From: Alphaproteobacteria bacterium
Lineage (GTDB): Bacteria; Pseudomonadota; Alphaproteobacteria; SMXQ01
Length of the DNA: 64,000 nucleotides
Assembly: GCA_038145705.1 (NCBI GenBank)
Contig: JAYQQF010000009.1
Span: 68,422-132,421, forward strand
Direction of reading: 5' to 3'
A model generated the notes under the pieces. The model was not told the origin of the DNA and did not search any database. It was given only the letters and a program-made list of their open reading frames with translations. A program made the translations under genes and the position numbers. Below, in pieces: positions 23,828 through 45,065 of the stretch. Numbering within the stretch: the first letter of the stretch is position 1; each line of letters starts with the position of its first letter.

Positions 23828-25300
23828 TCAGGGCCCGCCCACGCCGAGTTGCTGTTCTGCCCTGGCGCGGGCGGCCCGGGTTTTCTTCGGCGCGCCGGCG
23901 CGGCGCCCGTCGGCAGGCACCGCCGGCAGGGCTGCGAAGGTGCTGTCTATTTCCTGGCGCGCCGAGAGGAAGCGGTTGCGCTCGGCGCCGTGCAGGGTGC
24001 GCCCGGTCGGCAGCTTGATCGACAGCGGATTCATGTGCCGGTTGTTGTAGAGCACTTCGTAGTGCAGGTGCGGGCCGGTCGAGCGCCCGGTGGTGCCGAC
24101 ATAGCCGATGATCTGGCCCTGGCTCACGCGTGCGCCGCGGTTGATGCCCTTGGCGAAGCGGCTCATGTGGGCGTAGGCAGTCGAATAGGTCGTGTTGTGA
24201 CGGATGCGGACGTAGCGGCCATAGGCGCCGTTCCAGCGCGCATCGACCACCACGCCGCGGCCTGCCGCCATGATCGGAGTGCCGGTCGGAGCGGCGAAGT
24301 CGATGCCCTTGTGCACCTTGGTATAGCCGAGGATGGGATGGCGCCGCTTGCCGAAGCGAGACGACAGGCGGGCGCCGTCGATGGGCGTGCGCATCAGCGC
24401 CTTGCGGGTGCTTTCGCCCTTGCCGTTGAAGTAGTCCCAGGTACCGTCGTCGCCGCGGAAGCGGTAAATCTCGAGCTTCTTGCCCGAAAGTGTCAGCGCC
24501 GCGTAGATGACGTCGCCGGAACCGACGACGTTTCCTTCGGTATCCTTGATGCGGTCGAACAGCAGGTCGAAACGGTCCTGGGGCTGGATATCGCGCTGGA
24601 AATCGACGTCATAGGAAAAGGCGCGGATCATCTCGACGATTACGGGCGGCGGCACGCCGGCATTCACCGAATCGACGTAAAGGCTGTTTTCGATACTGGC
24701 CGAGGCGCGGGTCTGTTCGTGAGTCAGCTTGGTTTTCGACAGATAGGCCTCGAATGCATTGTCCCAGGTGCGGGCGACGCCGACGGTTTCACGGATGGAC
24801 GGCATGAATTCGAAGCCGCGGAAGGATTCGCCCGCCTTGTTGTCGGGACCAAGGGGCTGGAAGCTCAGTTCCAGCTCGGTCCCGGCCACCAGTTCGCGCG
24901 GGTTGAACACCTTGCGCAGGGCGGAGACGGCCGCATGGGCATCATCGGAACGTACCCGCGCGCGGGCGAGTACCGTCGTCAGGGTGTCGCCGCTGCGCAC
25001 TTTCACGACCCGGGTGACGCTCCTTTGGCGATTTTCAAGAGCGCTATCGGGGGTGGTCAGGGACAGGACCGCCTGCCGGGCGTCGATGCGTGCCTCGTGG
25101 TCGGCGGGCGCCAGCGCGTCCCCGCGCGGCGCCGGCGCGATCCATGGTGCGACCCAGATCGCGACGCCCCAGGTCAGGGCGCCGATGGCGGCGGCGGTGA
25201 CGAGGCCCGGCTTCGGCAGGTACTGCGGCAGGCGCTGCCACCAGCGTCGTTCGACGGGCGGGGGGGAAGTCTGGTCGGATAAGGGGGTCTGGGAAGTCAT
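23828..25300 (-). CDS. M23 family metallopeptidase with an N-terminal membrane anchor
   Basis: C-terminal LytM/M23 domain (HKGIDFAAPTGTPI...GTTGRSTGPHLHYEV) and an N-terminal TM helix. The start MTSQTPL at 25298-25300 is chosen over the 899-aa ORF extension. Confidence 0.8.
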   Translation of the reverse strand: MTSQTPLSDQTSPPPVERRWWQRLPQYLPKPGLVTAAAIGALTWGVAIWVAPWIAPAPRGDALAPADHEARIDARQAVLSLTTPDSALENRQRSVTRVVKVRSGDTLTTVLARARVRSDDAHAAVSALRKVFNPRELVAGTELELSFQPLGPDNKAGESFRGFEFMPSIRETVGVARTWDNAFEAYLSKTKLTHEQTRASASIENSLYVDSVNAGVPPPVIVEMIRAFSYDVDFQRDIQPQDRFDLLFDRIKDTEGNVVGSGDVIYAALTLSGKKLEIYRFRGDDGTWDYFNGKGESTRKALMRTPIDGARLSSRFGKRRHPILGYTKVHKGIDFAAPTGTPIMAAGRGVVVDARWNGAYGRYVRIRHNTTYSTAYAHMSRFAKGINRGARVSQGQIIGYVGTTGRSTGPHLHYEVLYNNRHMNPLSIKLPTGRTLHGAERNRFLSARQEIDSTFAALPAVPADGRRAGAPKKTRAARARAEQQLGVGGP

Positions 25301-25579
25301 CGAATTCCGGTGACGTTGATATGCGCCTCTGTCCGTTTGCGGTCCTTTTCGCCCGGCGACCGCGAACAGGGGTGAAATTCCGGCCTCCCGAGCCGTGCCT
25401 GCCATCGGCAAACCGTTTACCGGTCTTAAGGCTGGCCGCAGCAGAATGGAGTCAAGCCCCCGCGCTGTCAACAAGGGGCCGGAGGATTTCCGGGGTTTTC
25501 GCTCGCATATGAAAATGATATCGCTACCGCGCGAACGTCGGGCCGGCACAGGCAAGCCGGTTTGGGGATACGGGAAAAA

Positions 25580-26560
25580 ATGGGCGAGAACACGGGTTTT
25601 TCGACACGACAACTCGCGATCATCGAGAGGATTTTCGGTGTCGCGGGGCGGCCCGAGGGCGACGCCATCGTCATCGGCGACAGAAAAATCCCGGTTCGCG
25701 ACGGCGTCATTCTGCTGGATGAGGCGGTCGCCGCGGGCGAGGCGCTCAAGAGCGACGTCATTCGCTCCTTCGGCAACGAATGGCAGGCCTTTGCCGACCT
25801 CAAGCCCGAACATCAGCTCGAATTCGATTGCTATTTCGACGTCGTCGAGGTTGCCGGGCTTGCGGGCAAGTCGGTGATCGACCTCGGCTGCGGCATGGGG
25901 CGCTGGTCGCGTATCCTGATGGACCGCACCACGCCGGACTTCCTCGTTTGCGTGGATCTGTCCGATGCCATTTTCGTTGCCCGCGAAAACCTCAAGGGTT
26001 GCGACAACGTCGTGTTCATCAAGGCGGACCTCGAACACCTCGACTTTCCGGGATTCCGGTTCGACTTCGCCTTTTCGCTGGGTGTTCTGCATCATATTCC
26101 CGCCGGTATCGAGACGGCGGTGGGAAATATCCACGGCTATGCTGCCCGCTTTCTTTGCTATCTTTATTACAGCCTTGAAAACCGGGGCCTCGGCTTTCGC
26201 CTGCTGTTCGGCGCGGCGACCTTGGTGCGCAAGGTTCTGTCGTCGATCGGACATGAGGGCACGCGCCGCTTCCTGTCCTGGCTGATCGCGGTCTTCGTCT
26301 ACAAGCCGCTGACGCTGATCGCTGATCTCGCGGGCGCGCTTGGCATGAACAAGGAGCGCGTGCCGCTCAACGCCTATTGCGGGTTTTCGATCGGCCGTAT
26401 CCAGCAGGATGCCTATGATCGCTTCTTCACCAAGGTCGAGCATAGGTTTTCGCGCGCCGACATCCAGCGCATCTTTTCGCCTTACTGGGAGCGGATAACG
26501 ATCTCGGACATTCAGCCGTTCTGGCATTTCTTTTGCGAGGGACGGCGGGAGAGACGATGA
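25580..26560 (+). CDS. class I SAM-dependent methyltransferase
   Basis: SAM-binding motif VIDLGCGMGRWS. ATG at 25580. Confidence 0.7.
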   Translation: MGENTGFSTRQLAIIERIFGVAGRPEGDAIVIGDRKIPVRDGVILLDEAVAAGEALKSDVIRSFGNEWQAFADLKPEHQLEFDCYFDVVEVAGLAGKSVIDLGCGMGRWSRILMDRTTPDFLVCVDLSDAIFVARENLKGCDNVVFIKADLEHLDFPGFRFDFAFSLGVLHHIPAGIETAVGNIHGYAARFLCYLYYSLENRGLGFRLLFGAATLVRKVLSSIGHEGTRRFLSWLIAVFVYKPLTLIADLAGALGMNKERVPLNAYCGFSIGRIQQDAYDRFFTKVEHRFSRADIQRIFSPYWERITISDIQPFWHFFCEGRRERR

Positions 26561-27438
26561 CCTGGATTTCGTCCGTCGCCGGCAAACTGCCCTGGTGGGC
26601 GAAGATCGCGGGAAAGGTCGTCCTTTCCAGGCTGCCGGTCAGCGGCAAGGTGTGGCAGAAGATCGGCCTGTTTTCGCCGGGCCTGATGTGGCGGCCCGAT
26701 TACGCCATCGGCGTGTTCGATTTCCATTACCGCGCGGCGGGATCGCCCGCGGCGGGCTTTTCCTACCTGGAACTCGGCCCGGGGGATTCCGTGGCCTCGG
26801 CTGTCGTCGGCAAGGCCTATGGCGCGGCGCGAGCGTGGCTGGTCGATTCGGGGTCCTATGCCAGCCGGGACATGGATCTGTACCGGGAAGTGGTGCGGCG
26901 CCTCGCGGCGGAACGGCCGGGCACAGACCTCTCCGTCTTGCGCGATGCGCCGGGCCTCGACGCACTGCTGCAGGCCTGCGCGACGACCTTCCTTGAACAG
27001 GGCCTAGCCAGCCTCAAGCAGGTGCCGGCCGAAAGCTGCGATTTCATCTTTTCCGAAGCGGTGCTGGAGCACGTGCCCCTTGGCGAATTCGATGCCGTCA
27101 TGGGCGAACTGCACCGCATCCTGAAGCCGGGCGGGGTCGCCACGCACCGGGTCGATTTCCGCGATCACCTGGGCGGCGGCTGGAATAACCTGAGGTTTTC
27201 CGCCGATCTCTGGGAGTCGCCGTGGTTCGCCCTGCGGTCGGGGTTCTACACCAATCGGCTGCGTCTTTCGGTAATGACCGCGAGGCTGCAGGCAGCCGGT
27301 TTCGCTGTTGAGGTGTCGCAGCGGTCGTCCTGGCCCGCCCCGCCGATTGCGCGGGGCCTGCTGGATGGCGGCTTCCAGGGTCTTTCCGAGGAAGACCTGA
27401 TGACCGATCAGGCCCATATCCTTGCCAGAAAACCCTAG
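26557..27438 (+). CDS. class I SAM-dependent methyltransferase (Methyltransf_11-like)
   Basis: ATGA overlap with the upstream gene. Motifs LELGPGDS and HRILKPGGV. Confidence 0.7.
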   Translation: MTWISSVAGKLPWWAKIAGKVVLSRLPVSGKVWQKIGLFSPGLMWRPDYAIGVFDFHYRAAGSPAAGFSYLELGPGDSVASAVVGKAYGAARAWLVDSGSYASRDMDLYREVVRRLAAERPGTDLSVLRDAPGLDALLQACATTFLEQGLASLKQVPAESCDFIFSEAVLEHVPLGEFDAVMGELHRILKPGGVATHRVDFRDHLGGGWNNLRFSADLWESPWFALRSGFYTNRLRLSVMTARLQAAGFAVEVSQRSSWPAPPIARGLLDGGFQGLSEEDLMTDQAHILARKP

Positions 27439-27458
27439 GGTTTCGCCCCCGAACCTAT

Positions 27459-27535
27459 ATTCACGCGATGAATCACCGGTTCATTTTTAATTAACTATCT
27501 GATAATATTGAAATATTAATATTCATGGCGTGAAT
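27459..27535. promoter_or_regulatory. cluster of dyad-symmetric ATTCAY/RTGAAT motifs (candidate operator) in an AT-rich intergenic region
   Basis: ATTCACgcgATGAAT at 27459-27473, ATGAATcaccggTTCAT at 27468-27484 and ATTCATggcGTGAAT at 27521-27535. The last is the near reverse complement of the first, with a 47-bp AT-rich spacer between them. Confidence 0.4.
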
Positions 27536-27544
27536 AATCGCGCC

Positions 27545-27573
27545 TTGACGGGGCGGTCGTTAAGCTTATAAAT
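27545..27573 (+). promoter_or_regulatory. sigma-70-like promoter (TTGACG - 17 nt - ATAAAT) for the regulator / rfaH-like operon
   Basis: A near-consensus -35 and -10 with a 17-nt spacer, 25 bp upstream of the GTG start at 27598. An RBS-like AAGGGGA precedes that start. Confidence 0.45.
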
Positions 27574-27597
27574 TGCGCAGATTCAAGGGGATAATCC

Positions 27598-28239
27598 GTG
27601 TTTTCGACGAAGCCGCGCGCCAAGACCGAACTGGATTTCCTTGCCGCCCTCGAGCGCGGCGAGGTCGTAACCCAGGCAACCCTGTCGCGCCGGATCGGCA
27701 TCGCCATCGGGCTGGTCAACGCGCTTCTCAAGCGCGCGACGCTGAAGGGCTTCGTCAAGGTTCGCACCGCCCCCTACAAGCGTTACGCCTATTACCTCAC
27801 GCCCCGCGGCTTCGCCGAGAAGAGCCGTCTGGTGGCCGAATACCTCGAAGTTTCCCTCGAATTCTTCCGCGAGGCGCGGCGCCAGTACCAGGACCTGCTC
27901 TGGCGTGCCGAACAGTCGGGCCGCAAGCGTCTTGTCTTGGTCGGCGGCGGCGAACTTGCGGAAATCGCGGTCCTTGCGTCGCGCGATCTCGGCGTCGAAC
28001 TGGTCGCCGTCGTCGATGCCGAAACCAACAGGAGCAGCCTGTTCGGCCTTCCCGTCGTGAGGAACATTGATCAGGCCGCAGATTGGGACGCCGTCATCAT
28101 TACCGACAGCAAGCGGCCGCAGGCTGTATATGACGAGATTAAGGGCATTGTGGATCCCGCACGCTTGCTGGCCCCCGAACTGCTCAAGATTACCCTTGCA
28201 CCGTCCGAGGGGCTCGAAGAGGGGGAGAGCGCCGCATGA
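27598..28239 (+). CDS. transcriptional regulator with an N-terminal winged helix-turn-helix and a C-terminal CoA-binding-type Rossmann domain (Rex-like architecture)
   Basis: wHTH (TQATLSRRIGIAIGLVNALLKRATLKGFVKV) followed by a Rossmann-like module (RLVLVGGGELAEIAVLASRDLGVELVAVVD...GLPVV...DAVII). GTG start. Its stop overlaps the next gene's start (ATGA). Confidence 0.55.
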   Translation: MFSTKPRAKTELDFLAALERGEVVTQATLSRRIGIAIGLVNALLKRATLKGFVKVRTAPYKRYAYYLTPRGFAEKSRLVAEYLEVSLEFFREARRQYQDLLWRAEQSGRKRLVLVGGGELAEIAVLASRDLGVELVAVVDAETNRSSLFGLPVVRNIDQAADWDAVIITDSKRPQAVYDEIKGIVDPARLLAPELLKITLAPSEGLEEGESAA

Positions 28240-28733
28240 AGGGCTGGTACGTCGTCTGTACCCATCCGAATCAGGAAAGGCGCGCCGAGGAAAACCTCCG
28301 TCGCCAGGGATTCCGCCCTTGGGTGCCGAGTTTCGCGCGCCTGCGCCGGCATGCGCGTCGCGTCGAGCGGGTGCGCGCGCCGCTTTTCCCGGGCTATCTG
28401 TTCGTCGAACTTGACCCCGTGCGCGAACCCTGGTCTGCGATCAATTCGACCTTTGGCGTGAAGCGGCTGATTTGCCGCAAGGATGTTCCGGCCAGGCTGC
28501 CCGAGGGGTTCGCCGAAGATCTGCGCGCCAGCGTCGAATCGCCCGATTTCATTGCCCCCGAAGACCGGCTCGATGCCGGAGATCGGGTACGCATTACCGA
28601 TGGCCCGTTTGCCGATGCGGTCGGCTTTATCAGCTCGATCGATCCGCAGCAGAGGGTGTCGCTGCTTTTGAGTCTGCTCGGACGCGAAGTATCCGTCGTC
28701 GTGCCGCGCGACTTGGTCGTCCTCGCTTCCTGA
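28236..28733 (+). CDS. rfaH: RfaH-like specialised NusG paralog (operon-specific transcription antiterminator)
   Basis: NGN domain (MKGWYVVCTHPNQERRAEENLRRQG...PLFPGYLFVELDP) is collinear with E. coli RfaH (MQSWYLLYC...PLFPNYLFVEFDP). It has a KOW-like C-terminus and is 165 aa. There is no secE/rplK context. It lies immediately upstream of an exact ops element. Confidence 0.7.
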   Translation: MKGWYVVCTHPNQERRAEENLRRQGFRPWVPSFARLRRHARRVERVRAPLFPGYLFVELDPVREPWSAINSTFGVKRLICRKDVPARLPEGFAEDLRASVESPDFIAPEDRLDAGDRVRITDGPFADAVGFISSIDPQQRVSLLLSLLGREVSVVVPRDLVVLAS

Positions 28734-28761
28734 GCGGGGCGTGTTTTCAGTCCTGGTCGAT

Positions 28762-28782
28762 GGGTGAAAGCCGTTTTCACCC
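28762..28782 (+). other. perfect 8-bp hairpin (GGGTGAAA-gccgt-TTTCACCC) in the operon leader, 4 nt upstream of ops
   Basis: Read directly from the sequence. No downstream U-tract, so it is not an intrinsic terminator. Confidence 0.5.
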
Positions 28783-28786
28783 AAAC

Positions 28787-28798
28787 GGCGGTAGCGTG
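28787..28798 (+). promoter_or_regulatory. ops (operon polarity suppressor) element GGCGGTAGCGTG, the RfaH recruitment/pause site
   Basis: Exact 12/12 match to the canonical E. coli ops sequence on the non-template (coding) strand. It lies 53 nt after the rfaH-like stop and 36 nt before the first biosynthetic gene. Confidence 0.75.
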
Positions 28799-28833
28799 CC
28801 GAAAGCCGGCCGCAGTCATATGGGAAGGTTCGC

Positions 28834-29772
28834 ATGAAGATTTTCGTTACCGGGGGATGCGGGTACAAGGGCACGGTGCTGGTGCCGAAGCTCCTGCGCG
28901 ACGGTCATGAGGTCGAGGTCCTCGACACCCAGTGGTTCGGCAATTTCCTTCCGAAGCATGCGGCGCTGAAGGTGCGCAAGGGCAGCGTCCTCGATATCGA
29001 GCGCATCAACCTTGAAGGCTTTGATGCCATCATCCACCTGTCGTCGGTTGCCAACGATCCTTGCGGCGATCTCGACCCGAAACTCACGTGGGAGATCAGC
29101 GCGCTCGCGACCATGCAAATCGCCGACAAGGCGGTTCGCCAAGGGGTGAAGCAGTTCATCTATGCGTCGTCGGGCAGCGTTTACGGCGTCAAGGAGGAAG
29201 AGCAGGTCACCGAGGATCTCGAACTGCTCCCCATCTCCGAATACAACAAGACCAAGATGGTGGCGGAACGGGTGCTGCTGTCCTACGAGCCGCAGATGGC
29301 CATTCAAATCGTTCGACCGGCGACGGTCTGCGGGCTGTCGCCGCGCATGCGCCTCGATGTTTCGGTCAACATGCTGACCATGCAGGCGCTCGAGCGGGGG
29401 CAAATCACCGTGTTCGGCGGTGACCAGACGCGCCCCAACATCCACATGGACGACATCACCGACGTTTACCTGCATCTCCTCGGCAACCCGGAAATCCGCG
29501 GGGTTTACAACGCCGGCTTCGAAAATCTCTCGATCATGGAAATTGCCGAGATGGTGACGTCCTTCGTTCCGGCGAAGATCGTCAAGCAGGGATCGAACGA
29601 TCCGCGCTCCTATCGCGTCAATTCGGACAAGCTTCTTGCGACCGGTTTCACGCCGCGCAAGACGGTGCGCGACGCCATCGCCGAGATCGTCGCGGCCTAC
29701 AAGGCGGGCGATCTCAAGAACGAACCGCATTTCCACAATCTGAAGTGGATGCAGGAAAAGGTTTTGGGTTAG
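28834..29772 (+). CDS. NAD-dependent epimerase/dehydratase (extended SDR) family protein
   Basis: Motifs VTGGCGYKG and the catalytic YNKTK. RBS GGGAAGG. Confidence 0.75.
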   Translation: MKIFVTGGCGYKGTVLVPKLLRDGHEVEVLDTQWFGNFLPKHAALKVRKGSVLDIERINLEGFDAIIHLSSVANDPCGDLDPKLTWEISALATMQIADKAVRQGVKQFIYASSGSVYGVKEEEQVTEDLELLPISEYNKTKMVAERVLLSYEPQMAIQIVRPATVCGLSPRMRLDVSVNMLTMQALERGQITVFGGDQTRPNIHMDDITDVYLHLLGNPEIRGVYNAGFENLSIMEIAEMVTSFVPAKIVKQGSNDPRSYRVNSDKLLATGFTPRKTVRDAIAEIVAAYKAGDLKNEPHFHNLKWMQEKVLG

Positions 29773-30813: not shown

Positions 30814-32385
30814 ATGGCTGAACAAAAACCTTTCGATCGCCGTAGCCAGCCGCGCATGGCGCGCAACAAGATCCGCTCCATTGCGGAACTCGGCGAGATA
30901 TCTGCGCGCGCCAAGGCCGAGGGCCGCAAGGTCGTTCTCTGCCATGGCGTTTTCGACCTGTTGCACATGGGCCATGTCCGTCACCTTGAGGCCGCGCGCC
31001 GCGAAGGCCATGTCCTGTTCGTGACGCTGACCGCGGACAAGCATGTCAACAAGGGGCCCGGCCGGCCCGTCTTCACGGAACAGCTGCGCGCCGAGATGAT
31101 CGGATCGGTCGAATATGTCGATTGGGTCGGCATCAACGAAGCGCCCAGCGCGGAGCCCGTTCTTCAGGCCATCAAGCCCGATATCTACGTCAAGGGCAGC
31201 GACTACAAGAACCCGGGCGAGGACGTCACGGGCCGCATCGTTTCCGAACAGGAGGTTGTGGAGGCCCACGGCGGAAAGATCGTTTTCACCGACGACATCG
31301 TTTTTTCCTCGTCGGCGCTGATCAACCAGCATCTGGGGATTTACGAGCCGACGCTTCAGGCCTATCTCGGGCGGCTGCGCGACGAAGGCCGCCAGCAGCA
31401 GCTTCTCGATGCGATTGAGCGGCTCAGAGATCTCAAGGTCGTGGTCATCGGCGATGCCATTATCGACGAGTACCAGTACGTCCAGCCGATGGGCCGTTCG
31501 GCCAAGGAAAACATGATCGCGACCCTGTTCCAGGAACGCGAGGTCTTTGCCGGGGGCGTCTTCGCCGCGGCCAACCATGTCGCCGATTTCTGCGAGAACG
31601 TCACGGTCATCACCGGTTTCGGCGGCTACGACACCTACGAGGAAATGGCGCGCGGCAGCCTCAAGCCGAACATCTCGCTTCGGGCCGTATACCGGAAGGA
31701 AGCGCCGACCACGCGGAAGTGCCGCTTCATCGACCATGGCTATTCGATGCGCAAGATGTTCGAGGTCTACTTCATGGACGACAGGCCGTTGTCTGAAGAA
31801 AGCAGGCTGTCTCTAAACCGAGAGATTGAAAAAGCAATCACGGACGCCGATGTAGTCATTGTCACCGATTTCGGTCATGGCCTGCTTAGTGGCGACAGCA
31901 TCGCGCTTCTGGAGCAGAAATCGAAATTCCTCGCGGTGAATTCGCAGTCGAACGCCGGCAATCACGGCTACAACCTGGTCAGCAAATACAGGCGGGCGGA
32001 TTACGTGTGCGTCGACGGAACCGAGGCGCGGCTGGCGGTCCATGACAAATTTTCCGACATGGAAGATGTCGTAACAAAGCTTTTGCCCGGCCTGATTGAC
32101 TGCAACAACATCGTCGTCACGTTGGGCAAAAACGGCTGCTTCGCGTTCGACCGCAAGGCCGGCCTTTGCAAGGTTCCGGCCTTGACCAGTTCCATTGTCG
32201 ATACGGTCGGCGCGGGCGATGCGTTTTTCGCGCTCAGCGCGCCGATGGTAGCCGTCGGCCTGCCGATGGAACTGGTCGGCTTCTTCGGCAATGCGGCGGG
32301 CGCCATGAAGGTCGGCATCGTCGGCCACCGTTCCTCGGTCGAGAAAGTCCCGATGATCAAGTTCCTGACGGCGCTGCTGAAATAG
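30814..32385 (+). CDS. bifunctional heptose-1-phosphate nucleotidyltransferase / heptose-7-phosphate kinase-like protein (HldE-like, domains in reversed order)
   Basis: The N-terminus is an HxGH cytidylyltransferase-like domain (LCHGVFDLLHMGHVRHL...VTLTADKHVNKGPGRPV), as in HldE domain II. The C-terminus is a PfkB/ribokinase-family kinase (DTVGAGDAFF), as in HldE domain I. Confidence 0.65.
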   Translation: MAEQKPFDRRSQPRMARNKIRSIAELGEISARAKAEGRKVVLCHGVFDLLHMGHVRHLEAARREGHVLFVTLTADKHVNKGPGRPVFTEQLRAEMIGSVEYVDWVGINEAPSAEPVLQAIKPDIYVKGSDYKNPGEDVTGRIVSEQEVVEAHGGKIVFTDDIVFSSSALINQHLGIYEPTLQAYLGRLRDEGRQQQLLDAIERLRDLKVVVIGDAIIDEYQYVQPMGRSAKENMIATLFQEREVFAGGVFAAANHVADFCENVTVITGFGGYDTYEEMARGSLKPNISLRAVYRKEAPTTRKCRFIDHGYSMRKMFEVYFMDDRPLSEESRLSLNREIEKAITDADVVIVTDFGHGLLSGDSIALLEQKSKFLAVNSQSNAGNHGYNLVSKYRRADYVCVDGTEARLAVHDKFSDMEDVVTKLLPGLIDCNNIVVTLGKNGCFAFDRKAGLCKVPALTSSIVDTVGAGDAFFALSAPMVAVGLPMELVGFFGNAAGAMKVGIVGHRSSVEKVPMIKFLTALLK

Positions 32386-33357
32386 ATGATGGACGCAACC
32401 ACCCGCAAGGCGCTTTACCGTGCCATGAGCCGCATCCGCACCGTCGAGGAACGGATCGCGGACCTGTATCCCGAGCAGGAGATGCGCTGTCCGGTGCATC
32501 TGTGCATCGGGCAGGAGGCGGCGGAGGCCGGAACCGGTCTGGCGCTCGATCGGCGCGACTATGCGCTGTCGGGGCACCGGTCCCATGGCCATTACCTTGC
32601 CAAGGGCGGCGATCTCAAGGGCATGATGGCTGAAATCTACGGCAAGGCCACGGGATGCGCGGGCGGCAAGGGCGGCTCCATGCACCTTGTCGATCTCGAT
32701 GCCGGGTTCCTCGGCGCCGTGCCCATCGTCGGCAGCACCATTCCCATCGCCGTCGGCACCGCCTTCAGTTCGAAAATGAAGGGCGAGGACCGGGTGACCA
32801 TGGTCTTCTTCGGCGACGGCGCGACGGAGGCGGGCGTGTTTCACGAAAGCCTCAACTTCGCCGCCCTGCATGCTCTGCCCATCGTCTTCGTCTGCGAAAA
32901 CAACCTCTATTCCGTGTATTCGCCGATGGGCGTGCGCCAGCCTGACGGGCGTTCCATCGCCGGGATTGCCGCGGCCCATGGTGTCGCGACCCAAACGGGC
33001 GACGGCAATGATGCCGAGGCGGTCTTCACGCTCGCCAGCAAAGCAGTGGATGCTGCCCGGCGCGGACAGGGGCCGGTTTTCATCGAGCTTTCCACCTATC
33101 GCTGGCGCGAGCATTGCGGACCCAATTTCGACAATCACATCGGCTATCGCACCGAGGCCGAGTACGAGGAATGGCGGCAGCGAGATCCGCTGGCGCTCTA
33201 CCGCGCCCGGCTGATTGCCGACGGCGCCGCCACGGGCGCGGAACTCGCCGCCATCGATGCGGAACTCGCCGCCGAAATGGAGGACGCCGTAACGTTCGCG
33301 AAGTCCTCCCCGTTCCCGCCGCGCGAGAGCGCCGGCCAGCACATCTACGCTGAGTGA
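32386..33357 (+). CDS. thiamine-diphosphate-dependent dehydrogenase E1 component, alpha subunit (PDH/acetoin-DH E1-alpha-like)
   Basis: ThDP-binding motif GDGATEAG...NN and E1-alpha-like length and pattern. Confidence 0.8.
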   Translation: MMDATTRKALYRAMSRIRTVEERIADLYPEQEMRCPVHLCIGQEAAEAGTGLALDRRDYALSGHRSHGHYLAKGGDLKGMMAEIYGKATGCAGGKGGSMHLVDLDAGFLGAVPIVGSTIPIAVGTAFSSKMKGEDRVTMVFFGDGATEAGVFHESLNFAALHALPIVFVCENNLYSVYSPMGVRQPDGRSIAGIAAAHGVATQTGDGNDAEAVFTLASKAVDAARRGQGPVFIELSTYRWREHCGPNFDNHIGYRTEAEYEEWRQRDPLALYRARLIADGAATGAELAAIDAELAAEMEDAVTFAKSSPFPPRESAGQHIYAE

Positions 33358-33367
33358 GGGCCGCGCC

Positions 33368-34426
33368 GTGACCAGACAGATCAAGTTTTTCGAAGCGCTG
33401 CGCGAAGGCCTTGACCAGTGCATGGGGGCCGATGCCTCCGTCTACGTGATGGGCCTCGGCGTGCCCGATCCGGGCGGAATCTTCGGTTCGACCAAGGGGC
33501 TTGTGGAAAAATACGGGGCATCCCGGGTGCTCGACATGCCGCTCGCCGAAAACACCATGACAGGCGTTGCCATCGGTTCGGCGCTGACGGGACTGCGGCC
33601 GGTGCTGACCCACCAGCGCGTCGATTTTGCCATCCTGTCGATGGAGCAGCTCGTCAACCAGGCGGCCAAGTGGCACTACATGTTCGACGGGCGCATGCGC
33701 GTGCCGCTGGTCGTGCGCATGATCATCGGGCGCGGCTGGGGGCAGGGCCCGCAGCATTCCCAGAGCCTGCAGGCGATGTTCGCCCAGGTGCCGGGCCTCA
33801 AGGTGGTAATGCCGACCACGGCGTATGACGCCAAGGGTCTGCTGATCGCCGCCATCGAGGACGATAACCCGGTGGTCATGCTCGAGCACCGCTGGCTTTA
33901 CGGCATCGCCGACGATGTCCCCGAAGAGGCCTATCGGGTTCCGCTCGGCAAGGCCAAGATCATGCGCGAGGGCGGCGACGTCACCATCGTCGGGCTGTCC
34001 TACATGAGCCTGGAAAGCCTGCGCGCGGCAGATATTCTGAAGGGCTACGGCATTTCCGCCGAGGTCATCGACCTTCGTTCGCTGCGTCCCCTCGATGAAG
34101 CGACGATCCTGGCGTCGTTGCGCAAGACGGGCCGTCTTGTCGTCACCGATACGGCGCACGGGCCTTTCGGGGCGACGTCGGAGATCATGGCGCTCGCGGC
34201 GGAAAAGGCATTCGGCGCCCTCAAGGCGGCGCCGTCGCGGGTCTGCCTGCCCGATCATCCAGCACCGACCAGTCCGGCGCTTGCCGACGATTTCTATCCG
34301 CGCGCCGGCCACATCGCCGCCGCGGTGCTGCGCCAGTTGGGCCGCGAACCGGATGCCGCGCTGTTTGCGCCGCCCGCGGGCCGCCGCCTCGACCAGCCCG
34401 ATTCATCGTTTCAGGGGCCATTCTGA
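33368..34426 (+). CDS. E1 component beta subunit (transketolase-like pyrimidine-binding domain plus C-terminal domain)
   Basis: E1-beta pattern (MPLAENTMTGVAIG...RVPLVVR...VVMLEH...VTIVGLS). GTG start. Confidence 0.8.
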   Translation: MTRQIKFFEALREGLDQCMGADASVYVMGLGVPDPGGIFGSTKGLVEKYGASRVLDMPLAENTMTGVAIGSALTGLRPVLTHQRVDFAILSMEQLVNQAAKWHYMFDGRMRVPLVVRMIIGRGWGQGPQHSQSLQAMFAQVPGLKVVMPTTAYDAKGLLIAAIEDDNPVVMLEHRWLYGIADDVPEEAYRVPLGKAKIMREGGDVTIVGLSYMSLESLRAADILKGYGISAEVIDLRSLRPLDEATILASLRKTGRLVVTDTAHGPFGATSEIMALAAEKAFGALKAAPSRVCLPDHPAPTSPALADDFYPRAGHIAAAVLRQLGREPDAALFAPPAGRRLDQPDSSFQGPF

Positions 34427-35619
34427 TGAGTGAATTGCTTTCCAGCCTGTCGACGTCGCTCGGTACCGCTTGCGCAGTCTGTGGTGGGCCCACGGAGTCG
34501 ACCCTTGAACTGCCCGGGTTGCCTCTGACCGATACCTTCACGCGGACGCCGGTCGACAATCCCGTGAGCGGCATCGACCAGACGTTCAGGTTCTGCGAGG
34601 CCTGCGGGCACGGCCAGTTGGGGCATCAGGTCGCGCCCGAGGTGCTTTACGGCAGCAATTACTGTTTCCGCACATCGGCAAGCCCGACGGCGCGAAAGGG
34701 TACCGATTTCTTCATGTCGCTGCTGGACGAGGTAGCGGCAGGACGCCAGTTTCGCTCGGCCATCGATCTTGGCTGCAACGATCTTTTCCTTCTTGATCGT
34801 GTCGGCGACCGTGCCGCATTGCGCACAGGCGTCGATCCGATCTGGAAGGGGCGCGAGCATGAAATGGATGGCCAGCCCATCCGCGTGATCGGCGCCCCCA
34901 TCGAGGACGTGGATCTTTCCGTGCTGGACCAGAAGCCGGACCTCGTGATGTGCCGCCACACGCTCGAACACATCGCGCGTCCGCGCGATGTCGTTGCGGG
35001 ACTGCTGGCGGGCGCGGCTGACGATGCCATTTTCGTTTTCGAGGTTCCGGGCATCGAGGCTCTGGTCAACCGCTGTCGTTTCGACCAGGTGTTTCACCAG
35101 CATCTCCAGTATTTTTCGATGCGGTCGTTTCTGAAAATGCTGGAAGGCCTTGGCGCCAGGGCCATCGCGGTGAAGTCGCACTATCACGACTGGGGCGCCT
35201 TCGCGGTCGCGTTCGCCAAGGGTGGCGATGGTGGCGCGGCGCCCCTGCTGGATGCCCCGGACGGGGAGAAGATGTCTTCTCGGCTGAAGGTTTTCCGCTC
35301 GCAGATGGCTGCGAACGCGGAATTGATACGATTGATCGATGGACCGGCCTTCGGTTACGGCGCCGCGCAGATGTTGCCGGTGCTCGCCTATCACATGGGC
35401 ACGGATCTCGGGTTTCTCGACGCGGTGATCGATGACGATCCGGAAAAGGAAGGCGTATTCTACTGGAACCTGCCGGTCAGCATCCGGCCGCTCGCAGCGG
35501 TGGGAAGCCTCGATGCCGCGACGGTCCTGATTACGGCGGTCGACAGCGCGCAGCCCATTTTGCGCCGTCTTCTCGAAAGGCGGCCCCGTCACATCATTCA
35601 TCCCTTCAACATGATTTAA
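34426..35619 (+). CDS. C-methyltransferase-family protein (N-terminal zinc ribbon, SAM methyltransferase, C-terminal C-MT domain; TylC3/NDP-hexose C-methyltransferase-like)
   Basis: CAVCG...CEACGHG zinc-binding pairs, a methyltransferase core (IDLGCNDLF) and a long C-terminal domain, as in sugar C-methyltransferases. Confidence 0.6.
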   Translation: MSELLSSLSTSLGTACAVCGGPTESTLELPGLPLTDTFTRTPVDNPVSGIDQTFRFCEACGHGQLGHQVAPEVLYGSNYCFRTSASPTARKGTDFFMSLLDEVAAGRQFRSAIDLGCNDLFLLDRVGDRAALRTGVDPIWKGREHEMDGQPIRVIGAPIEDVDLSVLDQKPDLVMCRHTLEHIARPRDVVAGLLAGAADDAIFVFEVPGIEALVNRCRFDQVFHQHLQYFSMRSFLKMLEGLGARAIAVKSHYHDWGAFAVAFAKGGDGGAAPLLDAPDGEKMSSRLKVFRSQMAANAELIRLIDGPAFGYGAAQMLPVLAYHMGTDLGFLDAVIDDDPEKEGVFYWNLPVSIRPLAAVGSLDAATVLITAVDSAQPILRRLLERRPRHIIHPFNMI

Positions 35620-35640
35620 ATCGGAAGCAGGTCGCAACAG

Positions 35641-36330
35641 ATGTCAGACGGCAAAGCCAGGGAATTCCAGAACCAGAGCCAGATCGACGACTATGGGAGC
35701 CGTGGCGGCGTATCCTTCGGGCCGTGGACGAGCCACATCTGGCGCACCGACCCACGCCACCTCGCCTTTCTGATGTCGCGCTACAAGTTCATTTCGAAGA
35801 TGCTGGCCGGACGCGAAAAGGCCTTCGAGGTCGGCTGCGGCGATGCGGCGGGCACACCGGTCGTGCTGCAAACCGTGAAGCGCGTCTTCGCCATCGATTT
35901 CGAGCCGCTGGTTCTCGAGGATGCGCGCAGGCGCTATGCCGCGGAAGGAGACGACCGGGTGCGTTTCGCCGTTCACGATATCTGCAGCGCGCCGGTGGAT
36001 GAAAAAGGTTTCAACGGCGCCTATTGCCTGGACGTGATCGAGCACGTCCCCGCCGAGCGCGAAGCCCTTTTCATGCGCAACATCGTCGCATCCCTCGATC
36101 GCCACGGCGTGTTCATCATCGGCACGCCCAATGTGACGGCCCAGCAGTATTCCAGCCCGGCGAGCATGGAAGGGCATATCAACCTCAAGAGTGCCAAGAC
36201 GCTGCATGAACTGATGGCCGTTCATTTTCACAATGTTTTCGACTTTTCGATGAATGACGAAGTCGTGCACACGGGGTACTCGCCGATGGCGCATTACCTG
36301 TTCTGCATGGGCGTCGGGGTCAAGTCGTAG
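35641..36330 (+). CDS. class I SAM-dependent methyltransferase
   Basis: Motifs FEVGCGDAAG and CLDVIEHV. Confidence 0.65.
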   Translation: MSDGKAREFQNQSQIDDYGSRGGVSFGPWTSHIWRTDPRHLAFLMSRYKFISKMLAGREKAFEVGCGDAAGTPVVLQTVKRVFAIDFEPLVLEDARRRYAAEGDDRVRFAVHDICSAPVDEKGFNGAYCLDVIEHVPAEREALFMRNIVASLDRHGVFIIGTPNVTAQQYSSPASMEGHINLKSAKTLHELMAVHFHNVFDFSMNDEVVHTGYSPMAHYLFCMGVGVKS

Positions 36331-36353
36331 GAACTGGCGCGGGGTATCGAATC

Positions 36354-37133
36354 ATGGACCTTGGAATCAAAGGCAAGCTGGCGCTGGTGACGGGGGCGGG
36401 TCGCGGCCTTGGCCGCGCGATTGCGAAGTCCCTTGCCGACGAGGGCGCGCGGGTCGTCGCGACGTCGCGGACGGAAGCCGACCTCGATGAATTGATGGCC
36501 GAGATCGGCGGAACTGGCGCCGGGCATCTTTCGGTCCCGATGGACATCGTGCCCGAGGGCGGGCCGGCGGAGCTTTTGCGCAAGTCACGCGAAGGCGGTT
36601 TCGATCATTTCGACATCGCCGTCCATAACGTCGGCGGGACCCTCGACATAAAGGATCCTTTCTGCTCCGTCGAGGACTGGCGGCGCGTCTACCGCTTCAA
36701 CTTCGAGGTCGCGGTCGAGCTGAACGCCTTGATCGTGCCCGCCATGCAGAAGCGCAAATGGGGCCGTGTCGTGCATATTTCCTCGATTTCGGCGATGGAA
36801 AACCATGGTCCCGTCACCTATTGCGCGATGAAGGCGGCATTGACCGCCTATACCCGCAGTTTCGGCGGCGTTGTCGCGCCCGACGGCGTGGTGATCTCGG
36901 CTGTCCTGCCGGGCGCCGTATTCACCGAAGGCGGTTACTGGGATACCACATCGCGGGAAAACCCCGAGCATGTGCGCAAGTATCTGACGGAACGTCAGCG
37001 CATCGGCCGCTTCGGCCGGCCCGAGGAAATCGGTAACTACGTAGCCTACCTCTGTTCCGAACTCGCATCCTTCAGCACGGGCAGCATCGTGCCGGTGGAC
37101 GGCGGGCAGGGCAGGGGCTATTTCGGCCAGTAA
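36354..37133 (+). CDS. SDR family oxidoreductase
   Basis: TGAGRGLG with a YxxxK core (YCAMKAA). Confidence 0.8.
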   Translation: MDLGIKGKLALVTGAGRGLGRAIAKSLADEGARVVATSRTEADLDELMAEIGGTGAGHLSVPMDIVPEGGPAELLRKSREGGFDHFDIAVHNVGGTLDIKDPFCSVEDWRRVYRFNFEVAVELNALIVPAMQKRKWGRVVHISSISAMENHGPVTYCAMKAALTAYTRSFGGVVAPDGVVISAVLPGAVFTEGGYWDTTSRENPEHVRKYLTERQRIGRFGRPEEIGNYVAYLCSELASFSTGSIVPVDGGQGRGYFGQ

Positions 37134-37164
37134 TCAGGGCCAGTAATCAGGGCAGGAACCCAAT

Positions 37165-37953
37165 ATGACCGCCAACGTGCTCAACAAGGATTTGCGCCGG
37201 CTGATCGTCGACATGACTGTCGCCGGGCGCGACGGGCATATCCCGAGCGCCTTCTCGATCGTGGATATCATCACCTATCTTTACGACCATGTTCTTCGGA
37301 TCGATCCGAAGAAACCGGATGATCCCGCGCGCGATTATTTCGTCCTCAGCAAGGGGCATGGATGCCTGGCGCTTTACGTCAACCTGCGCCGGCATGGGTT
37401 CATTACCGATCACGATATCGACACCTTCTGCAAGAAGGGCGGGATCCTCGGCGAGCATCCCGATCTGTGCAAGGTGCCGGGCGCCGAAGCGTCGTCGGGC
37501 TCCCTCGGCCATGGGCTCAGTTTTGCGGTCGGCATCGCGATGGGGCACAAGATCAAGAAGATGAACAACCGCATGTTCGTCCTGATCGGCGATGGCGAAA
37601 GCCACGAAGGCACCGTCTGGGAAGCAGCCCATGTCGCGGCCAATCACCGGCTGAAGAACCTCTGCGTGATCGTCGACTGGAACCGCTCGGGCATGCAGCT
37701 TCTGCCGATGGACGACCTGCCGGCGAAGTGGCGGGCCTTCGGCTGGCACACCCAGGAAATCGACGGCCACGACGAGGCCCAGATCAAGGCTGCCTGCGAT
37801 GCGGTCGCGGCCAAGACGACGGACCAGCCGAGCGTGATCGTTGCTCATACGGTCAAAGGCAAGGGCGTGCCGATGATCGAAGGACACGGCATGTGGCATC
37901 ACCGCATTCCCAACAAGGACGAATACGCTCACATCATGGAAGTGTTGTCATGA
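37165..37953 (+). CDS. transketolase, N-terminal (ThDP-binding) subunit of a split transketolase
   Basis: HIPSAFSIVDI...LSKGHG...GSLGHGL...GDGESHEG, the transketolase N-section. Confidence 0.8.
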   Translation: MTANVLNKDLRRLIVDMTVAGRDGHIPSAFSIVDIITYLYDHVLRIDPKKPDDPARDYFVLSKGHGCLALYVNLRRHGFITDHDIDTFCKKGGILGEHPDLCKVPGAEASSGSLGHGLSFAVGIAMGHKIKKMNNRMFVLIGDGESHEGTVWEAAHVAANHRLKNLCVIVDWNRSGMQLLPMDDLPAKWRAFGWHTQEIDGHDEAQIKAACDAVAAKTTDQPSVIVAHTVKGKGVPMIEGHGMWHHRIPNKDEYAHIMEVLS

Positions 37954-38882
37954 CCCCGGAAAAAGCCCTGCGTCAGCAGTTCGCCGATACCATGCTGGCG
38001 GTCGGCCAGGAAGACAGAGACCTCGTCGTCATCGTCGGCGACATCAGTCACGGCATCCTCCAGCCCTTCGCCAAGGCCTGCCCGGAGCGTTATTTCAACA
38101 TCGGCATCCTTGAACCGACGACCATGAGCCTGACCGCCGGCATGGCCCGCGTCGGTTTGTATCCGGTGCTGCACACGATCGCCCCGTTCCTGATCGAGCG
38201 CTCGTTCGAGCAGATCAAGCTCGATTTCTGCTATCACAAGCTGCACGGCAACATCATCACCGTGGGCAGCGCCTTCGACTATTCGAACCTCGGCTGTACC
38301 CATCACTGTTACGGCGACTTCGCCTTGCTCAAGACCCTGCCGGGTGTCGAGATCACCTACCCGGGATCGGCCGTCGAGTTCGATGCGCTCTTCCGTCAGG
38401 CCTATCGCAACGACAAGGTGACCTATTACCGCCTGCCCGGTACGCCGCACGGGGTCGTGTTCAAGCCCGAGGACGTCGTGCTAGGCAGGGGCATCAAGGT
38501 GGCAGAGGGGTCCGATATCACCCTGATCGGGACCGGCCCGCACCTGCGCACCGCACTGGATGTGCGTGACCGCCTGGCGGCCGAAGGCAAGAGCGCCGAG
38601 GTGCTCTACATCCATACCATCCGCCCCCTCGATTGCGAGCTGGTGCGCGCGAGCATTGCCAAGACCCGGAGGGCCGTGGTGATCGAGGAACACATGCGAT
38701 CGGGCGGGCTCGGCGACGAGGTGCTGAGAGAAACGCGGGACATTCCCGATGTCAAGTTTGCCTCCGCTTCGATCCCGGACCGCTTTGTCACCGGCTACGG
38801 TACCTACGAGGACCTGCTCGAGAGCATCGGGCTGACGGTTGATGGGGTCCTGTCGCTGATCGCGGAAAAGCGTTTCTTCTGA
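37950..38882 (+). CDS. transketolase, C-terminal (pyrimidine-binding plus C-terminal domain) subunit
   Basis: ATGA overlap with the upstream subunit. Transketolase C-section motifs (YFNIGILEPTTMSLTAG...). Confidence 0.8.
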   Translation: MTPEKALRQQFADTMLAVGQEDRDLVVIVGDISHGILQPFAKACPERYFNIGILEPTTMSLTAGMARVGLYPVLHTIAPFLIERSFEQIKLDFCYHKLHGNIITVGSAFDYSNLGCTHHCYGDFALLKTLPGVEITYPGSAVEFDALFRQAYRNDKVTYYRLPGTPHGVVFKPEDVVLGRGIKVAEGSDITLIGTGPHLRTALDVRDRLAAEGKSAEVLYIHTIRPLDCELVRASIAKTRRAVVIEEHMRSGGLGDEVLRETRDIPDVKFASASIPDRFVTGYGTYEDLLESIGLTVDGVLSLIAEKRFF

Positions 38883-38893
38883 AAGTCAGGGAA

Positions 38894-39892
38894 ATGAGCA
38901 ACGAGCGCACGCGAGCCATTGTTCTGGAACAGGTCGCTGCCCTTTCGGGCAAGGCGGATACGGTGGTTTCCGTCTGGGACACGCAGATTTTCCCGCTGAC
39001 CGTCGGCGGGCTGCTCATCGGGTTGCAGGAAATCCTGATGCTGCGCGCGCTCGTGGGGGCGCGGCGCGGCGTTCTTTGCGTGATTTCCCCGAAGGATGCC
39101 GGAGGCGGCGTGGCATTCAGGGCCGGCGATGCCGTGCCGAACCCGCTCGTGGAATTTGCGATGGCGACGCAAGCCATCGAGGAGTTCCATTACCTGCCCG
39201 ACCACGCTGCGGTTGCCGGCGTTGTCGCCGGGCGCTCCGCCCTGCTCTGGCCGTCCGAAACGGTTGCGCGGGAGCGGGCCCATGTTTATGGCACCACGCT
39301 TTACCTTCAGGCCCTTTACGACAGGCTCGGCAGGTTGCCGATGCTCTCGGTAGCAGGTCCCGCAAAAGAGTGGGCTCGGCGGTTTCTGGCTGAAAAATTC
39401 GGCGCCCGCCCGGTCATCGCCCTGCACCTGAAGAACAAGCCTGGTGCGATCAACGAAAGCAACGCGAATTTCCCCGCCTGGGCGGAATTCCTCGCAGAGG
39501 CGCCGGTGCGCCACGAGTGCGGCTTCGTCCTCGTCGGCAACGAGCCGGTGCCTGATTCGGTTCGGTCCCTGCCGCATGTCGTGCTCGCAGCCGACCATGG
39601 CAGCGCCTTGTGCCGCGATCTCGCCCTGATCGACTGTGCCCAGGCGTTCATGGGCATGGCGAGCGGCCTTTGCCAGATGGCGATGTTCGGTTCGAAGCCC
39701 TACATCGTGTTCAAGAATCCCGGACACCATGCCCCGGAAATGCAGCTTGAGCTTGGCGATGCCGATGGCTTCAACTTTTCGGGCAGGGCGCAGAAACTGC
39801 TGCGCATCCTTGATTCCCAAGATGTCCTTTTCCGCGAGTTCGGCGACGTTCTCGATGCTCTCGAATGCGGGACCGAGGAGGCCAGAACATGA
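38894..39892 (+). CDS. hypothetical protein, glycosyltransferase family 9 (heptosyltransferase)-like
   Basis: A weak GT9-like pattern (RPVIALHLKNKPGA...FVLVGNEP...ALIDCAQAFMGMASGLCQMAMFGSKPYIVF). Confidence 0.4.
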   Translation: MSNERTRAIVLEQVAALSGKADTVVSVWDTQIFPLTVGGLLIGLQEILMLRALVGARRGVLCVISPKDAGGGVAFRAGDAVPNPLVEFAMATQAIEEFHYLPDHAAVAGVVAGRSALLWPSETVARERAHVYGTTLYLQALYDRLGRLPMLSVAGPAKEWARRFLAEKFGARPVIALHLKNKPGAINESNANFPAWAEFLAEAPVRHECGFVLVGNEPVPDSVRSLPHVVLAADHGSALCRDLALIDCAQAFMGMASGLCQMAMFGSKPYIVFKNPGHHAPEMQLELGDADGFNFSGRAQKLLRILDSQDVLFREFGDVLDALECGTEEART

Positions 39893-44863: not shown

Positions 44864-45065
44864 ATTGGCGACTTCCTGATATGTCTGGATGCATAAAATG
44901 TTTTGCCGCCCGCAAGGCGCCACTCGATGCAGCCGTTATTCCCGCGCGCTTGAACTTCAGGCAGCGGCAAGCAGGAATTTCCGCTTAGTGAGAACAGCGG
45001 CTTCGGCATTGTCCATTGTGACCGGTCCCGATGTTTCAGAACAGCGAAGTCAGCCGATGGGTGAA

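Follow-up and report, generated by a model that had tools for sequence, protein, structure and literature searches.

The 64,000-nucleotide stretch analyzed here (the window; contig JAYQQF010000009.1 of an alphaproteobacterium) carries at 27598-28239 an open reading frame (ORF) for a putative transcriptional regulator. Its stop codon overlaps the start of an RfaH-like gene, and the pair is followed by an ops element and a long run of glycan-biosynthesis genes. Comparison with related loci indicates that what is new here is a one-component regulator joined to RfaH/ops control as the conserved head module of variable glycan operons. Sequence and comparative analysis show the family and the way its domains are arranged, where the operator lies, how the genes are ordered, and the presence of ops with a hairpin next to it. 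As to function, we lean toward a model in which the regulator would bind palindromes in its own promoter and so set expression of the whole rfaH-hairpin-ops-glycan unit, with its C-terminal domain as the input domain. The elements of the module have the following positions in the window.

27459-27473 (no strand): distal operator palindrome ATTCACGCGATGAAT (RTTCA-N5-TGAAY), with a counterpart at that position in L083 (92% identical)
27521-27535 (no strand): proximal operator palindrome ATTCATGGCGTGAAT, ending 9 nt before the predicted -35 element and centered near -53
27545-27574 (+): predicted sigma-70-type promoter, TTGACG-18 nt-TAAATT, from a consensus scan only
27598-28239 (+): regulator coding sequence, 213 amino acids, GTG start, stop codon counted in
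27610-27801 (+): N-terminal MarR-like winged helix-turn-helix, residues about 5-68, from sub-cutoff matches to TIGR04176 and MarR_2/HTH_24
27802-27915 (+): long connecting helix, residues 69-106, helical in the AlphaFold2 model, with the conserved sequence EKSRLVAEYLxxSLxFFRxAR
27919-28197 (+): C-terminal PglD_N-like Rossmann-type alpha/beta domain, residues about 108-200, from the predicted local distance difference test (pLDDT) and hhalign
28236-28733 (+): coding sequence of the RfaH-like NusG paralog, coupled to the regulator through ATGA
28761-28783 (+): stem-loop UGGGUGAAA-gccgu-UUUCACCCA, with a 9-bp stem, ending 3 nt before ops
28787-28798 (+): exact ops element GGCGGTAGCGTG, a 12-mer, the RfaH recruitment site
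28834-63869 (+): cargo of glycan-biosynthesis genes, at least 35 kb, about 34 co-directional genes

A predicted one-component regulator from an uncharacterized family

The regulator ORF is a real gene and not a chance reading frame, because full-length homologues are abundant (more than 1,100) and form 137 clusters (50% identity) at an expectation value (E) of ≤1e-30. Its GTG start is preceded by an AAGGGGA Shine-Dalgarno sequence at 27585-27591. A word-indexed search returned 1,104 relatives, the best 120 of which are all 207 to 255 amino acids long with query coverage of at least 83%. An exhaustive HMMER scan of 50%-identity representatives gave 2,271 matches at E ≤ 1e-3, and the 137 at E ≤ 1e-30 were full length. 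The family has more than 1,000 members, essentially all from Alphaproteobacteria, and their database names are no more specific than "winged helix-turn-helix," "MarR family," or "hypothetical." A literature search for a characterized family member, for the function of TIGR04176, or for RfaH in Alphaproteobacteria found nothing specific, in line with the remark in the initial annotation that such a control module was uncharacterized. The accessible part of the supplements to PMC7593976 holds no data on that paper's "CL4 + HTH regulator" cluster.

For the comparison of loci, which came from a scan of one genome per species, 80 of 547 confirmed loci were kept. Nearly all are from Alphaproteobacteria (Rhodospirillales, Kiloniellales, Thalassospira, Micavibrio, Ferrovibrio, Hyphomicrobium, and Chelatococcus). 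Four loci (L008, L024, L063, and L068) are labeled as Gammaproteobacteria, a cyanobacterium (Phormidesmis), Gemmatimonas, or Chloroflexota. Mis-binning or contamination is likelier there than occurrence outside the class, since these are short contigs or contigs of metagenome-assembled genomes (MAGs) that carry typical alphaproteobacterial modules. Some genomes have two regulator modules with a common operator consensus: L016 and L039 lie 25 kb apart on CBDCKM010000001.1, L027 and L031 are both on OZ244839.1, and L014 and L029 come from one MAG. By analogy with the multiple Upx loci of Bacteroides, cross-regulation between glycan loci is a possibility in such genomes.

Family members consist of a MarR-like winged helix of high conservation, a long helix, and, at the C terminus, an alpha/beta domain (C-domain) that evolves faster. 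The best match for the N terminus is TIGR04176 MarR_EPS (residues 9-98; 46.7 bits, E = 2.6e-12), and it does not reach the model's cutoff of 88. Matches to MarR_2 (PF12802; 21.4 bits, E = 2.9e-4) and HTH_24 (20.2 bits, E = 4.4e-4) likewise remain below their Pfam cutoffs of 27 and 21.9. A profile search of PDB sequences gave only marginal matches for the winged helix, to MarR (E of about 0.01), eS25, and DtxR-type proteins. AlphaFold2 predicted the order helix-helix-helix-wing-helix for this part at low confidence. Its invariant residues are Q26, G38, N41, K50, G51, K54, Y65, and T68, and the wing motif of the family is APYKRYAYYLTPxG. From the model, helix 69-106 would be a dimerization helix. 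Together, the sub-cutoff profile matches and the AlphaFold2 model bear out the initial annotation's description of a winged helix joined to a Rossmann-like module, and the motifs that it listed (VLVGGGELAEIAVLASRDLGVELVAVVD, GLPVV, and DAVII) are all present in the translation. The domain search that it proposed gave MarR-type matches below cutoff only; Put_DNA-bind_N and CoA_binding were absent from the Pfam results at E ≤ 1. The sequence argues for a one-component transcription factor whose family is so far uncharacterized.

The regulator has a conserved operator in its own upstream region

Both 15-bp palindromes upstream of the regulator gene read ATTCA-N5-TGAAT. They account for the inverted repeats at 27459-27535 that had been suggested as binding sites, and they belong to an operator conserved across the family. 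In the 78 loci having enough upstream sequence, the exact palindrome RTTCA-N5-TGAAY occurred 93 times within 170 nt 5′ of regulator genes, in 65 of these loci (7.0 copies per kb). Outside those 170-nt regions there were 5 copies in the remaining 845 kb (0.006 per kb), so the upstream regions are enriched about 1,000-fold. The 64-kb window has no match besides these two operators (0.15 expected), and 2 of 100 shuffled sequences reached two. On this comparative evidence, binding of the regulator at the window's predicted operator sites is well supported.

Conservation of the protein points the same way. The winged helix, with about 20 near-invariant residues, is the best-conserved part of the regulator (mean column entropy, 1.63 versus 2.56 for the C-domain; identity, 51% versus 34%), which agrees with the invariance of the operator. 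Arg27 was found in 39 of the 48 loci whose half-sites start with G and in none of the 11 whose half-sites start with A. This correlation between residue 27 and the half-site is suggestive and is confounded by phylogeny.

In most family promoters the operators lie on core promoter elements. A TTGAC -35 element abuts an operator that fills the spacer between -35 and -10 in 41 of 79 upstream regions, and in 28 of those 41 a second operator lies past the -10 element, over the start site. In 10 further regions an operator lies only over the -10 element and start site, giving at least 51 of 79 promoters with operators on core elements. Where operators are paired, their start-to-start distance is 21 to 23 nt in 38 cases, 14 nt in 9, and 28 nt in 4; in the window it is 62 nt. 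Since most operators of the family occupy the -35/-10 spacer and the start site, the default mode of action would be autorepression.

In the window, the TTGACG/TAAATT site was the single promoter-like match of a consensus scan of 27300-29000, and the TTGAC element keeps a constant position relative to the operators across loci. The layout with an operator 8 or 9 nt before TTGACG is found in the window, in L083 (92% identical), and in L085 and L086 (70 to 72%); in L003 to L007 the upstream site has this layout too. Between the two operators of the window lies a 47-nt AT-rich spacer (27474-27520), in surroundings of roughly 60% GC, which contains half-sites at 27479 (GTTCA) and 27509 (TGAAA). 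Such a region may serve in bending or looping or as an UP element.

The regulator gene is translationally coupled to an RfaH-like gene

The TGA of the regulator gene overlaps the ATG of the RfaH-like gene as ATGA (28236-28239), as had been noted from the window. The product of ORF 28236-28733 has the NusG NGN and KOW domains of Pfam. Its best model is TIGR01955 RfaH (119.3 bits, E = 1.5e-34; cutoff of 144.5 not reached), which outscores the UpxY, NusG, and LoaP models. Sixty-five of the 80 loci have an RfaH-like ORF within 100 nt 3′ of the regulator gene. A start could be assigned for 60 of these ORFs; 40 overlap the regulator gene by 4 nt and 5 by 1 nt, and the rest lie 1 to 33 nt apart. Seen in so many loci, mostly with overlapping genes, coupling of the regulator to rfaH is an ancient and conserved feature.

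Other genes may follow the regulator instead. In Chelatococcus the regulator gene overlaps a GDP-mannose dehydratase gene by 4 nt. L085 and L086 share the synteny of the window (M23 peptidase, methyltransferases, regulator), with a GmhA-like SIS isomerase gene and a transaldolase-like gene in place of rfaH and a GmhB-like HAD phosphatase gene before the regulator gene. Both loci are without hairpin-ops as well as without rfaH, so the rfaH-ops part can be gained or lost within one locus lineage.

A conserved hairpin precedes the ops element

An ops sequence, GGCGGTAGnnTG, lies on the coding strand 5′ of the cargo operon. The sole exact match in the window is at 28787-28798, 53 nt past the stop codon of the RfaH-like gene and 36 nt before the first cargo gene. 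The window also has five ops-like sites with one mismatch, no more than chance would give (6 found versus 4.05 expected).

A position weight matrix search of the 80 loci with a composite 22-nt motif of hairpin arm and ops (TCACCCGRAnKGCGGTAGCRTG) gave 47 matches on the plus strand and 0 on the minus strand. Forty-one of them lie 50 to 100 nt 3′ of rfaH, and 4 lie 99 to 274 nt past the regulator gene in loci without an adjacent rfaH; 45 of the 47 matches thus directly follow the module (45 of 80 loci). When sequences were folded singly, 39 of 44 loci had the CACCC arm paired in their minimum-energy structure. The stem covaries between CACCCG/CGGGUG and CACCCA/UGGGUG, and loop lengths vary. Because of the compensatory pair changes and the variable loop length, an RNA or single-strand hairpin is favored over a protein site in the duplex. 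No Rfam family, JUMPstart included, matched the hairpin-ops region at E ≤ 1. RNAalifold, given the ops alignment without gaps, overlooked the hairpin owing to its variable loop and returned only a two-pair C:G/G:C mini-stem inside ops. A terminator-like hairpin at 28721-28741 belongs to a class with no excess over chance (2 found versus 2.0 expected).

If RNA polymerase pauses at position 11 of ops, the end of the stem would be about 14 nt behind the RNA 3′ end. We speculate that the stem-loop might stabilize the pause used for RfaH loading. The hairpin arms GTGAA/TTCAC (28763-28781) are operator half-sites (GTTCAC/GTGAAC) in everted order. This may be a coincidence or may reflect a second binding mode of the regulator; the variable loop length favors an RNA structure. 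By their position, ops and the hairpin, neither of which the initial annotation had pointed out, indicate how both regulators would be wired to the operon.

The C-terminal domain resembles the accessory domains of glycan enzymes

AlphaFold2 modeled residues 100-200 with a pLDDT of 94 to 98 as beta-alpha-beta-beta-beta-alpha. In a Foldseek search of the PDB, all matches of this model were local, to generic Rossmann domains of the NAD(P) type (E ≥ 3e-3), for example in UDP-glucose dehydrogenase, aspartate dehydrogenase, and a GFO/IDH/MocA protein; no full-length structural analogue was found. Sequence matches were marginal: meso-diaminopimelate dehydrogenase (E = 0.025) and PerB (E = 0.6) in the PDB profile search, PerB at E = 0.007 in single-sequence phmmer, and the NeuD model at E = 6e-3. 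The match to CoA_binding_3 (PF13727; 17.3 bits, E = 5e-3) remained under the gathering threshold of 25, so the resemblance to WbaP proposed in the initial annotation is present at a marginal level only.

The proposed likeness to the N-terminal domains of NeuD and PglD found support in profile-profile comparison. A PglD_N profile was made from six domains, those of PerB, PglB-ATD, and VioB (from PDB alignments) and of three NeuD-like proteins from the loci. Aligned to it with hhalign, the C-domain profile of the family gave a probability of 91% (E = 1e-6, 64 columns). Classical Rossmann controls (N-terminal domains of short-chain dehydrogenase/reductase [SDR] epimerases, SDR, and zinc alcohol dehydrogenase) stayed below 1%, and a single-sequence GFO/IDH/MocA control gave 0.6%. 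Column-shuffled controls were below 2% in 19 of 20 cases, and one reached 31%. Our reading of this sequence evidence is that PglD_N is the closest relative of the C-domain, which has diverged from it and falls into no curated family. The regulator ends about 13 residues past the C-domain, and Pfam gave no match to hexapeptide repeats or a left-handed beta-helix acetyltransferase.

The family motif in the loop after the first strand is G116-x-[GS]-[ED]-L-A-E122-I-A. The VioB loop has two glycines that contact the deoxythymidine diphosphate-sugar, Gly8 at its ribose and Gly11 at its beta-phosphate (PMC9271549). G116 aligns with Gly8 and is Gly in 97% of sequences. The conserved residues G116, E/D119, E122, D164, T169, and P174-Q175 follow strands beta1 and beta4; judged from secondary structure and not from model coordinates, they would sit where Rossmann-type domains usually bind ligand. 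The PF13727 domain of WbaP binds UMP and UDP, is destabilized with UDP-Gal, mediates dimerization, and regulates the enzyme (PMC10942596). By analogy, a nucleotide or sugar-nucleotide ligand for the C-domain is a reasonable lead. Ligand sensing by the regulator is plausible and speculative, and both the existence and the identity of a ligand are speculation at this point. Of the nucleotide-binding module proposed initially, the Rossmann-like fold stands; the loop G-x-[GS]-[ED]-L-A-E is of neither the dinucleotide nor the nucleoside diphosphate (NDP)-phosphate type.

Proposed mechanism and alternatives

In the model that we favor, the MarR-like winged helix, presumably as a dimer, would bind RTTCA-N5-TGAAY ahead of its own gene. 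The bound regulator would set the promoter for a single transcript that carries the regulator, the RfaH-like antiterminator, hairpin-ops, and the extended glycan operon. With rfaH placed before ops on what would be the same transcript, one promoter would drive both the antiterminator and its target; for the same reason, RfaH synthesis would be independent of ops and cargo expression can depend on it. The resulting circuit would be feed-forward, the cargo being read through only after RfaH accumulates. The PglD_N-like C-domain would be the input. Most likely it would bind a small glycan metabolite, for example a nucleotide or nucleotide-sugar, and DNA binding would change as a result. Dimer binding, repression, cotranscription, and the feed-forward logic are what we infer from this arrangement.

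Several observations weigh against this model. All of it derives from sequence and comparative analysis, the promoter at 27545-27574 is a mere consensus match, and the winged helix was poorly modeled by AlphaFold2 (pLDDT of 45 to 60). In the window and its relatives L083, L085, and L086 the operators are upstream of the predicted -35 element and the spacer operator is degenerate. Because of this upstream position, repression is not directly implied for the window, and activation or looping would be possible. Fifteen of the 80 loci have no adjacent rfaH; in these the regulator still heads sugar-nucleotide genes and the operator is kept, and 4 of them keep ops. About 35 of the 80 loci have no ops motif within 6 kb. 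The likeness to PglD_N comes mainly from PerB-type members, with single-sequence hhalign probabilities of 90 to 95% for 2 of the 6 domains and below 10% for the other 4. Pfam PglD_N, CoA_binding, or CoA_binding_3 was seen in only 2 to 4 of 55 family C-domains, with thresholds missed: PglD_N (PF17836) and CoA_binding_3 matched 2 members each at E ≤ 0.05, and CoA_binding matched 4 at E ≥ 0.0066. The position of VioB Gly11 is Glu or Asp in 99% of sequences, which makes the binding mode of the enzymes impossible for the C-domain. The second Gly of GxG is Gly in 53% and Ser in 42% of sequences, and the acidic residue after beta2 is conserved in 64% only.

A more far-reaching version of the favored model, which we put forward tentatively, takes the operator, the sensor-repressor, rfaH in cis, and hairpin-ops as a portable operon-head cassette. 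The PglD_N-derived domain would read the nucleotide-sugar of the cluster, or the nucleoside mono- or diphosphate released from it, and the sensor would codiversify with the cargo. The outcome would be metabolite-gated antitermination of a 30- to 40-kb operon.

A serious rival gives the C-domain a role in oligomerization. The regulator would then be a ligand-independent autoregulator whose C-domain bridges dimers on paired operators, and its negative feedback would be homeostatic and confined to the regulator and RfaH. Operators are indeed usually paired with fixed helical phasing. The C-domain is poorly conserved overall and has Glu/Asp where PglD_N enzymes have the glycine that contacts phosphate, and the homologous WbaP domain is also a dimerization element (PMC10942596). 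Against this role, conservation within the C-domain is strongest just after beta1 and beta4, at the edge where Rossmann domains usually bind ligand (by secondary structure only), helix 69-106 already offers a dimer interface, and the faster evolution of this domain is what one would expect if it sensed products of variable cargo. We consider this role possible, without expecting it.

The operator positions in the window raise another alternative, that the regulator is an activator or dual regulator in this lineage, with the sites near -53 and -115 recruiting RNA polymerase to a weak promoter upon a signal. Both exact operators are upstream of the predicted -35 element and the spacer operator of other clades has degenerated. 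The predicted -10 element (TAAATT) and the 18-nt spacer are suboptimal, and L083, L085, and L086 conserve the layout. The family as a whole speaks for repression, operators on core elements in at least 51 of 79 promoters being typical of it. Moreover, a site abutting the -35/UP-element region can repress too, two sites 62 nt apart around an AT-rich spacer fit looping repression, and the promoter assignment is itself a prediction. Activation in the window lineage therefore seems unlikely to us.

Finally, it is very improbable that the RfaH-like protein is the main target of the regulator, which would then be an anti-antiterminator or chaperone like Bacteroides UpxZ on UpxY, with DNA binding secondary. 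The tight, conserved coupling to rfaH could give stoichiometric coproduction and two-module genomes would profit from control of cross-talk, but the loci without an adjacent rfaH keep the regulator and operator (and 4 of the 15 keep ops), conservation peaks in the winged helix, which covaries with the operator, and the regulator has no similarity to UpxZ, the best UpxY-family score being that of the neighboring gene and below cutoff.

RfaH is the textbook example of a fold-switching antiterminator; to our knowledge, control of its own supply is largely unknown. In this locus and about 65 others, RfaH appears to be cotranslated with a dedicated, apparently autoregulated factor and is encoded directly 5′ of its own loading site. 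If the C-domain senses a sugar-nucleotide, it would represent a new class of transcription factor sensor recruited from glycan enzymes, and such sensing would tie precursor supply to surface-polysaccharide expression in a major bacterial class. The comparison also gives a functional handle on more than 1,000 proteins annotated as "winged helix" or "hypothetical." The exact coordinates of the operators, promoter, hairpin, and ops make the circuit directly testable.

The cargo and neighboring genes

The glycan operon that had been proposed downstream of the module was found both in the window and in other loci. In the window, the cargo includes NDP-sugar epimerases and dehydratases, an HldE-like enzyme, pairs of E1/transketolase-like proteins dependent on thiamine pyrophosphate (TPP), methyltransferases, GT4, GT2, and GT61 glycosyltransferases, an ABC exporter, an RmlA-like enzyme, and DegT. 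Across loci, the first gene past the module is variable and overwhelmingly glycan-related, encoding NDP-sugar dehydratases or epimerases, DegT aminotransferases, GFO/IDH/MocA oxidoreductases, NeuB, glycosyltransferases, or ABC exporters.

The segment 30814-40695 (+) encodes an HldE-like kinase/nucleotidyltransferase, several SDRs, and a Methyltransf_13/23 enzyme. The cargo contains two sets of TPP-dependent E1/transketolase-like genes (32386-34426 and 37362-38882). The gene set at 30814-40695 points to a sugar with a branched chain or other heavy modification, possibly derived from heptose. Four cargo ORFs, in 38894-39892, 44889-48501, and 60093-61355, had no Pfam match at E ≤ 1e-5. Five downstream proteins of 590 to 640 amino acids, considered as PglF-like, were ruled out and are ABC exporters, a NeuB fusion, and asparagine synthase.

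Upstream of the module, the listed 899-codon ORF at 23828-26527 (-) is an over-extension that overlaps a methyltransferase gene on the plus strand (25562-26560). The real gene encodes an M23 peptidase (Csd3_N2 + Peptidase_M23) of about 490 amino acids at about 23828-25300 and is divergent from the cluster.

Comparison with known systems

The initial annotation likened the C-terminal module to the nucleotide-binding domain of Rex. Like Rex, the regulator has about 210 residues, with a winged helix at the N terminus and a Rossmann-type domain at the C terminus; its operator is palindromic with TTCA/TGAA half-site cores, and it may likewise be a metabolite-gated repressor. This likeness of architecture has no counterpart in sequence. 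The regulator had no match to Put_DNA-bind_N (PF06971) or CoA_binding (PF02629) in Pfam at E ≤ 1, and no Rex chain was among the PDB search matches at E ≤ 10. Rex operators are of the type TGTGAA-N-TTCACA, with half-sites in the opposite order to those of RTTCA-N5-TGAAY. The Rex loop is GxGxxG, in contrast with G-x-[GS]-[ED]-L-A-E, and Rex is found in the context of respiration and fermentation genes, whereas the regulator is found with glycan operons. On sequence, loop motif, and operator, we reject a Rex-type NADH sensor.

TIGR04176 MarR_EPS, the best match for the N-terminal 90 residues, shares the context of exopolysaccharide and glycan loci. Its proteins are single-domain and about 105 amino acids long, and the regulator family adds a conserved alpha/beta domain of about 100 residues. 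That domain has the same small beta-alpha-beta fold as the PglD_N/PF13727 accessory domains of PerB, PglD, VioB, and WbaP (there called "DUF"), to which the profile match tentatively links it. Unlike those enzymes, the regulator has no catalytic left-handed beta-helix or phosphoglycosyl transferase domain.

The UpxY-UpxZ heads of Bacteroides capsule loci resemble the module in that some genomes have several of them. UpxZ is an anti-UpxY protein encoded after the NusG paralog, whereas the partner in the window is a DNA-binding winged-helix protein encoded before it, and the window has its recruitment site 3′ of the gene for the paralog. On the RfaH-like protein, the UpxY model scored 74.8, against a cutoff of 100.

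A close parallel for the downstream half of the module is the RfaH/ops system of E. coli (JUMPStart), which serves lipopolysaccharide, capsule, and conjugation operons and has the identical ops 12-mer 5′ of a long glycan operon. In E. coli, rfaH is a lone gene that acts in trans. The window differs in that the RfaH-like protein scores below the equivalog cutoff, ops is preceded by a conserved stem-loop, and rfaH stands in cis directly 5′ of ops, where it would be cotranslated with a dedicated transcription factor.

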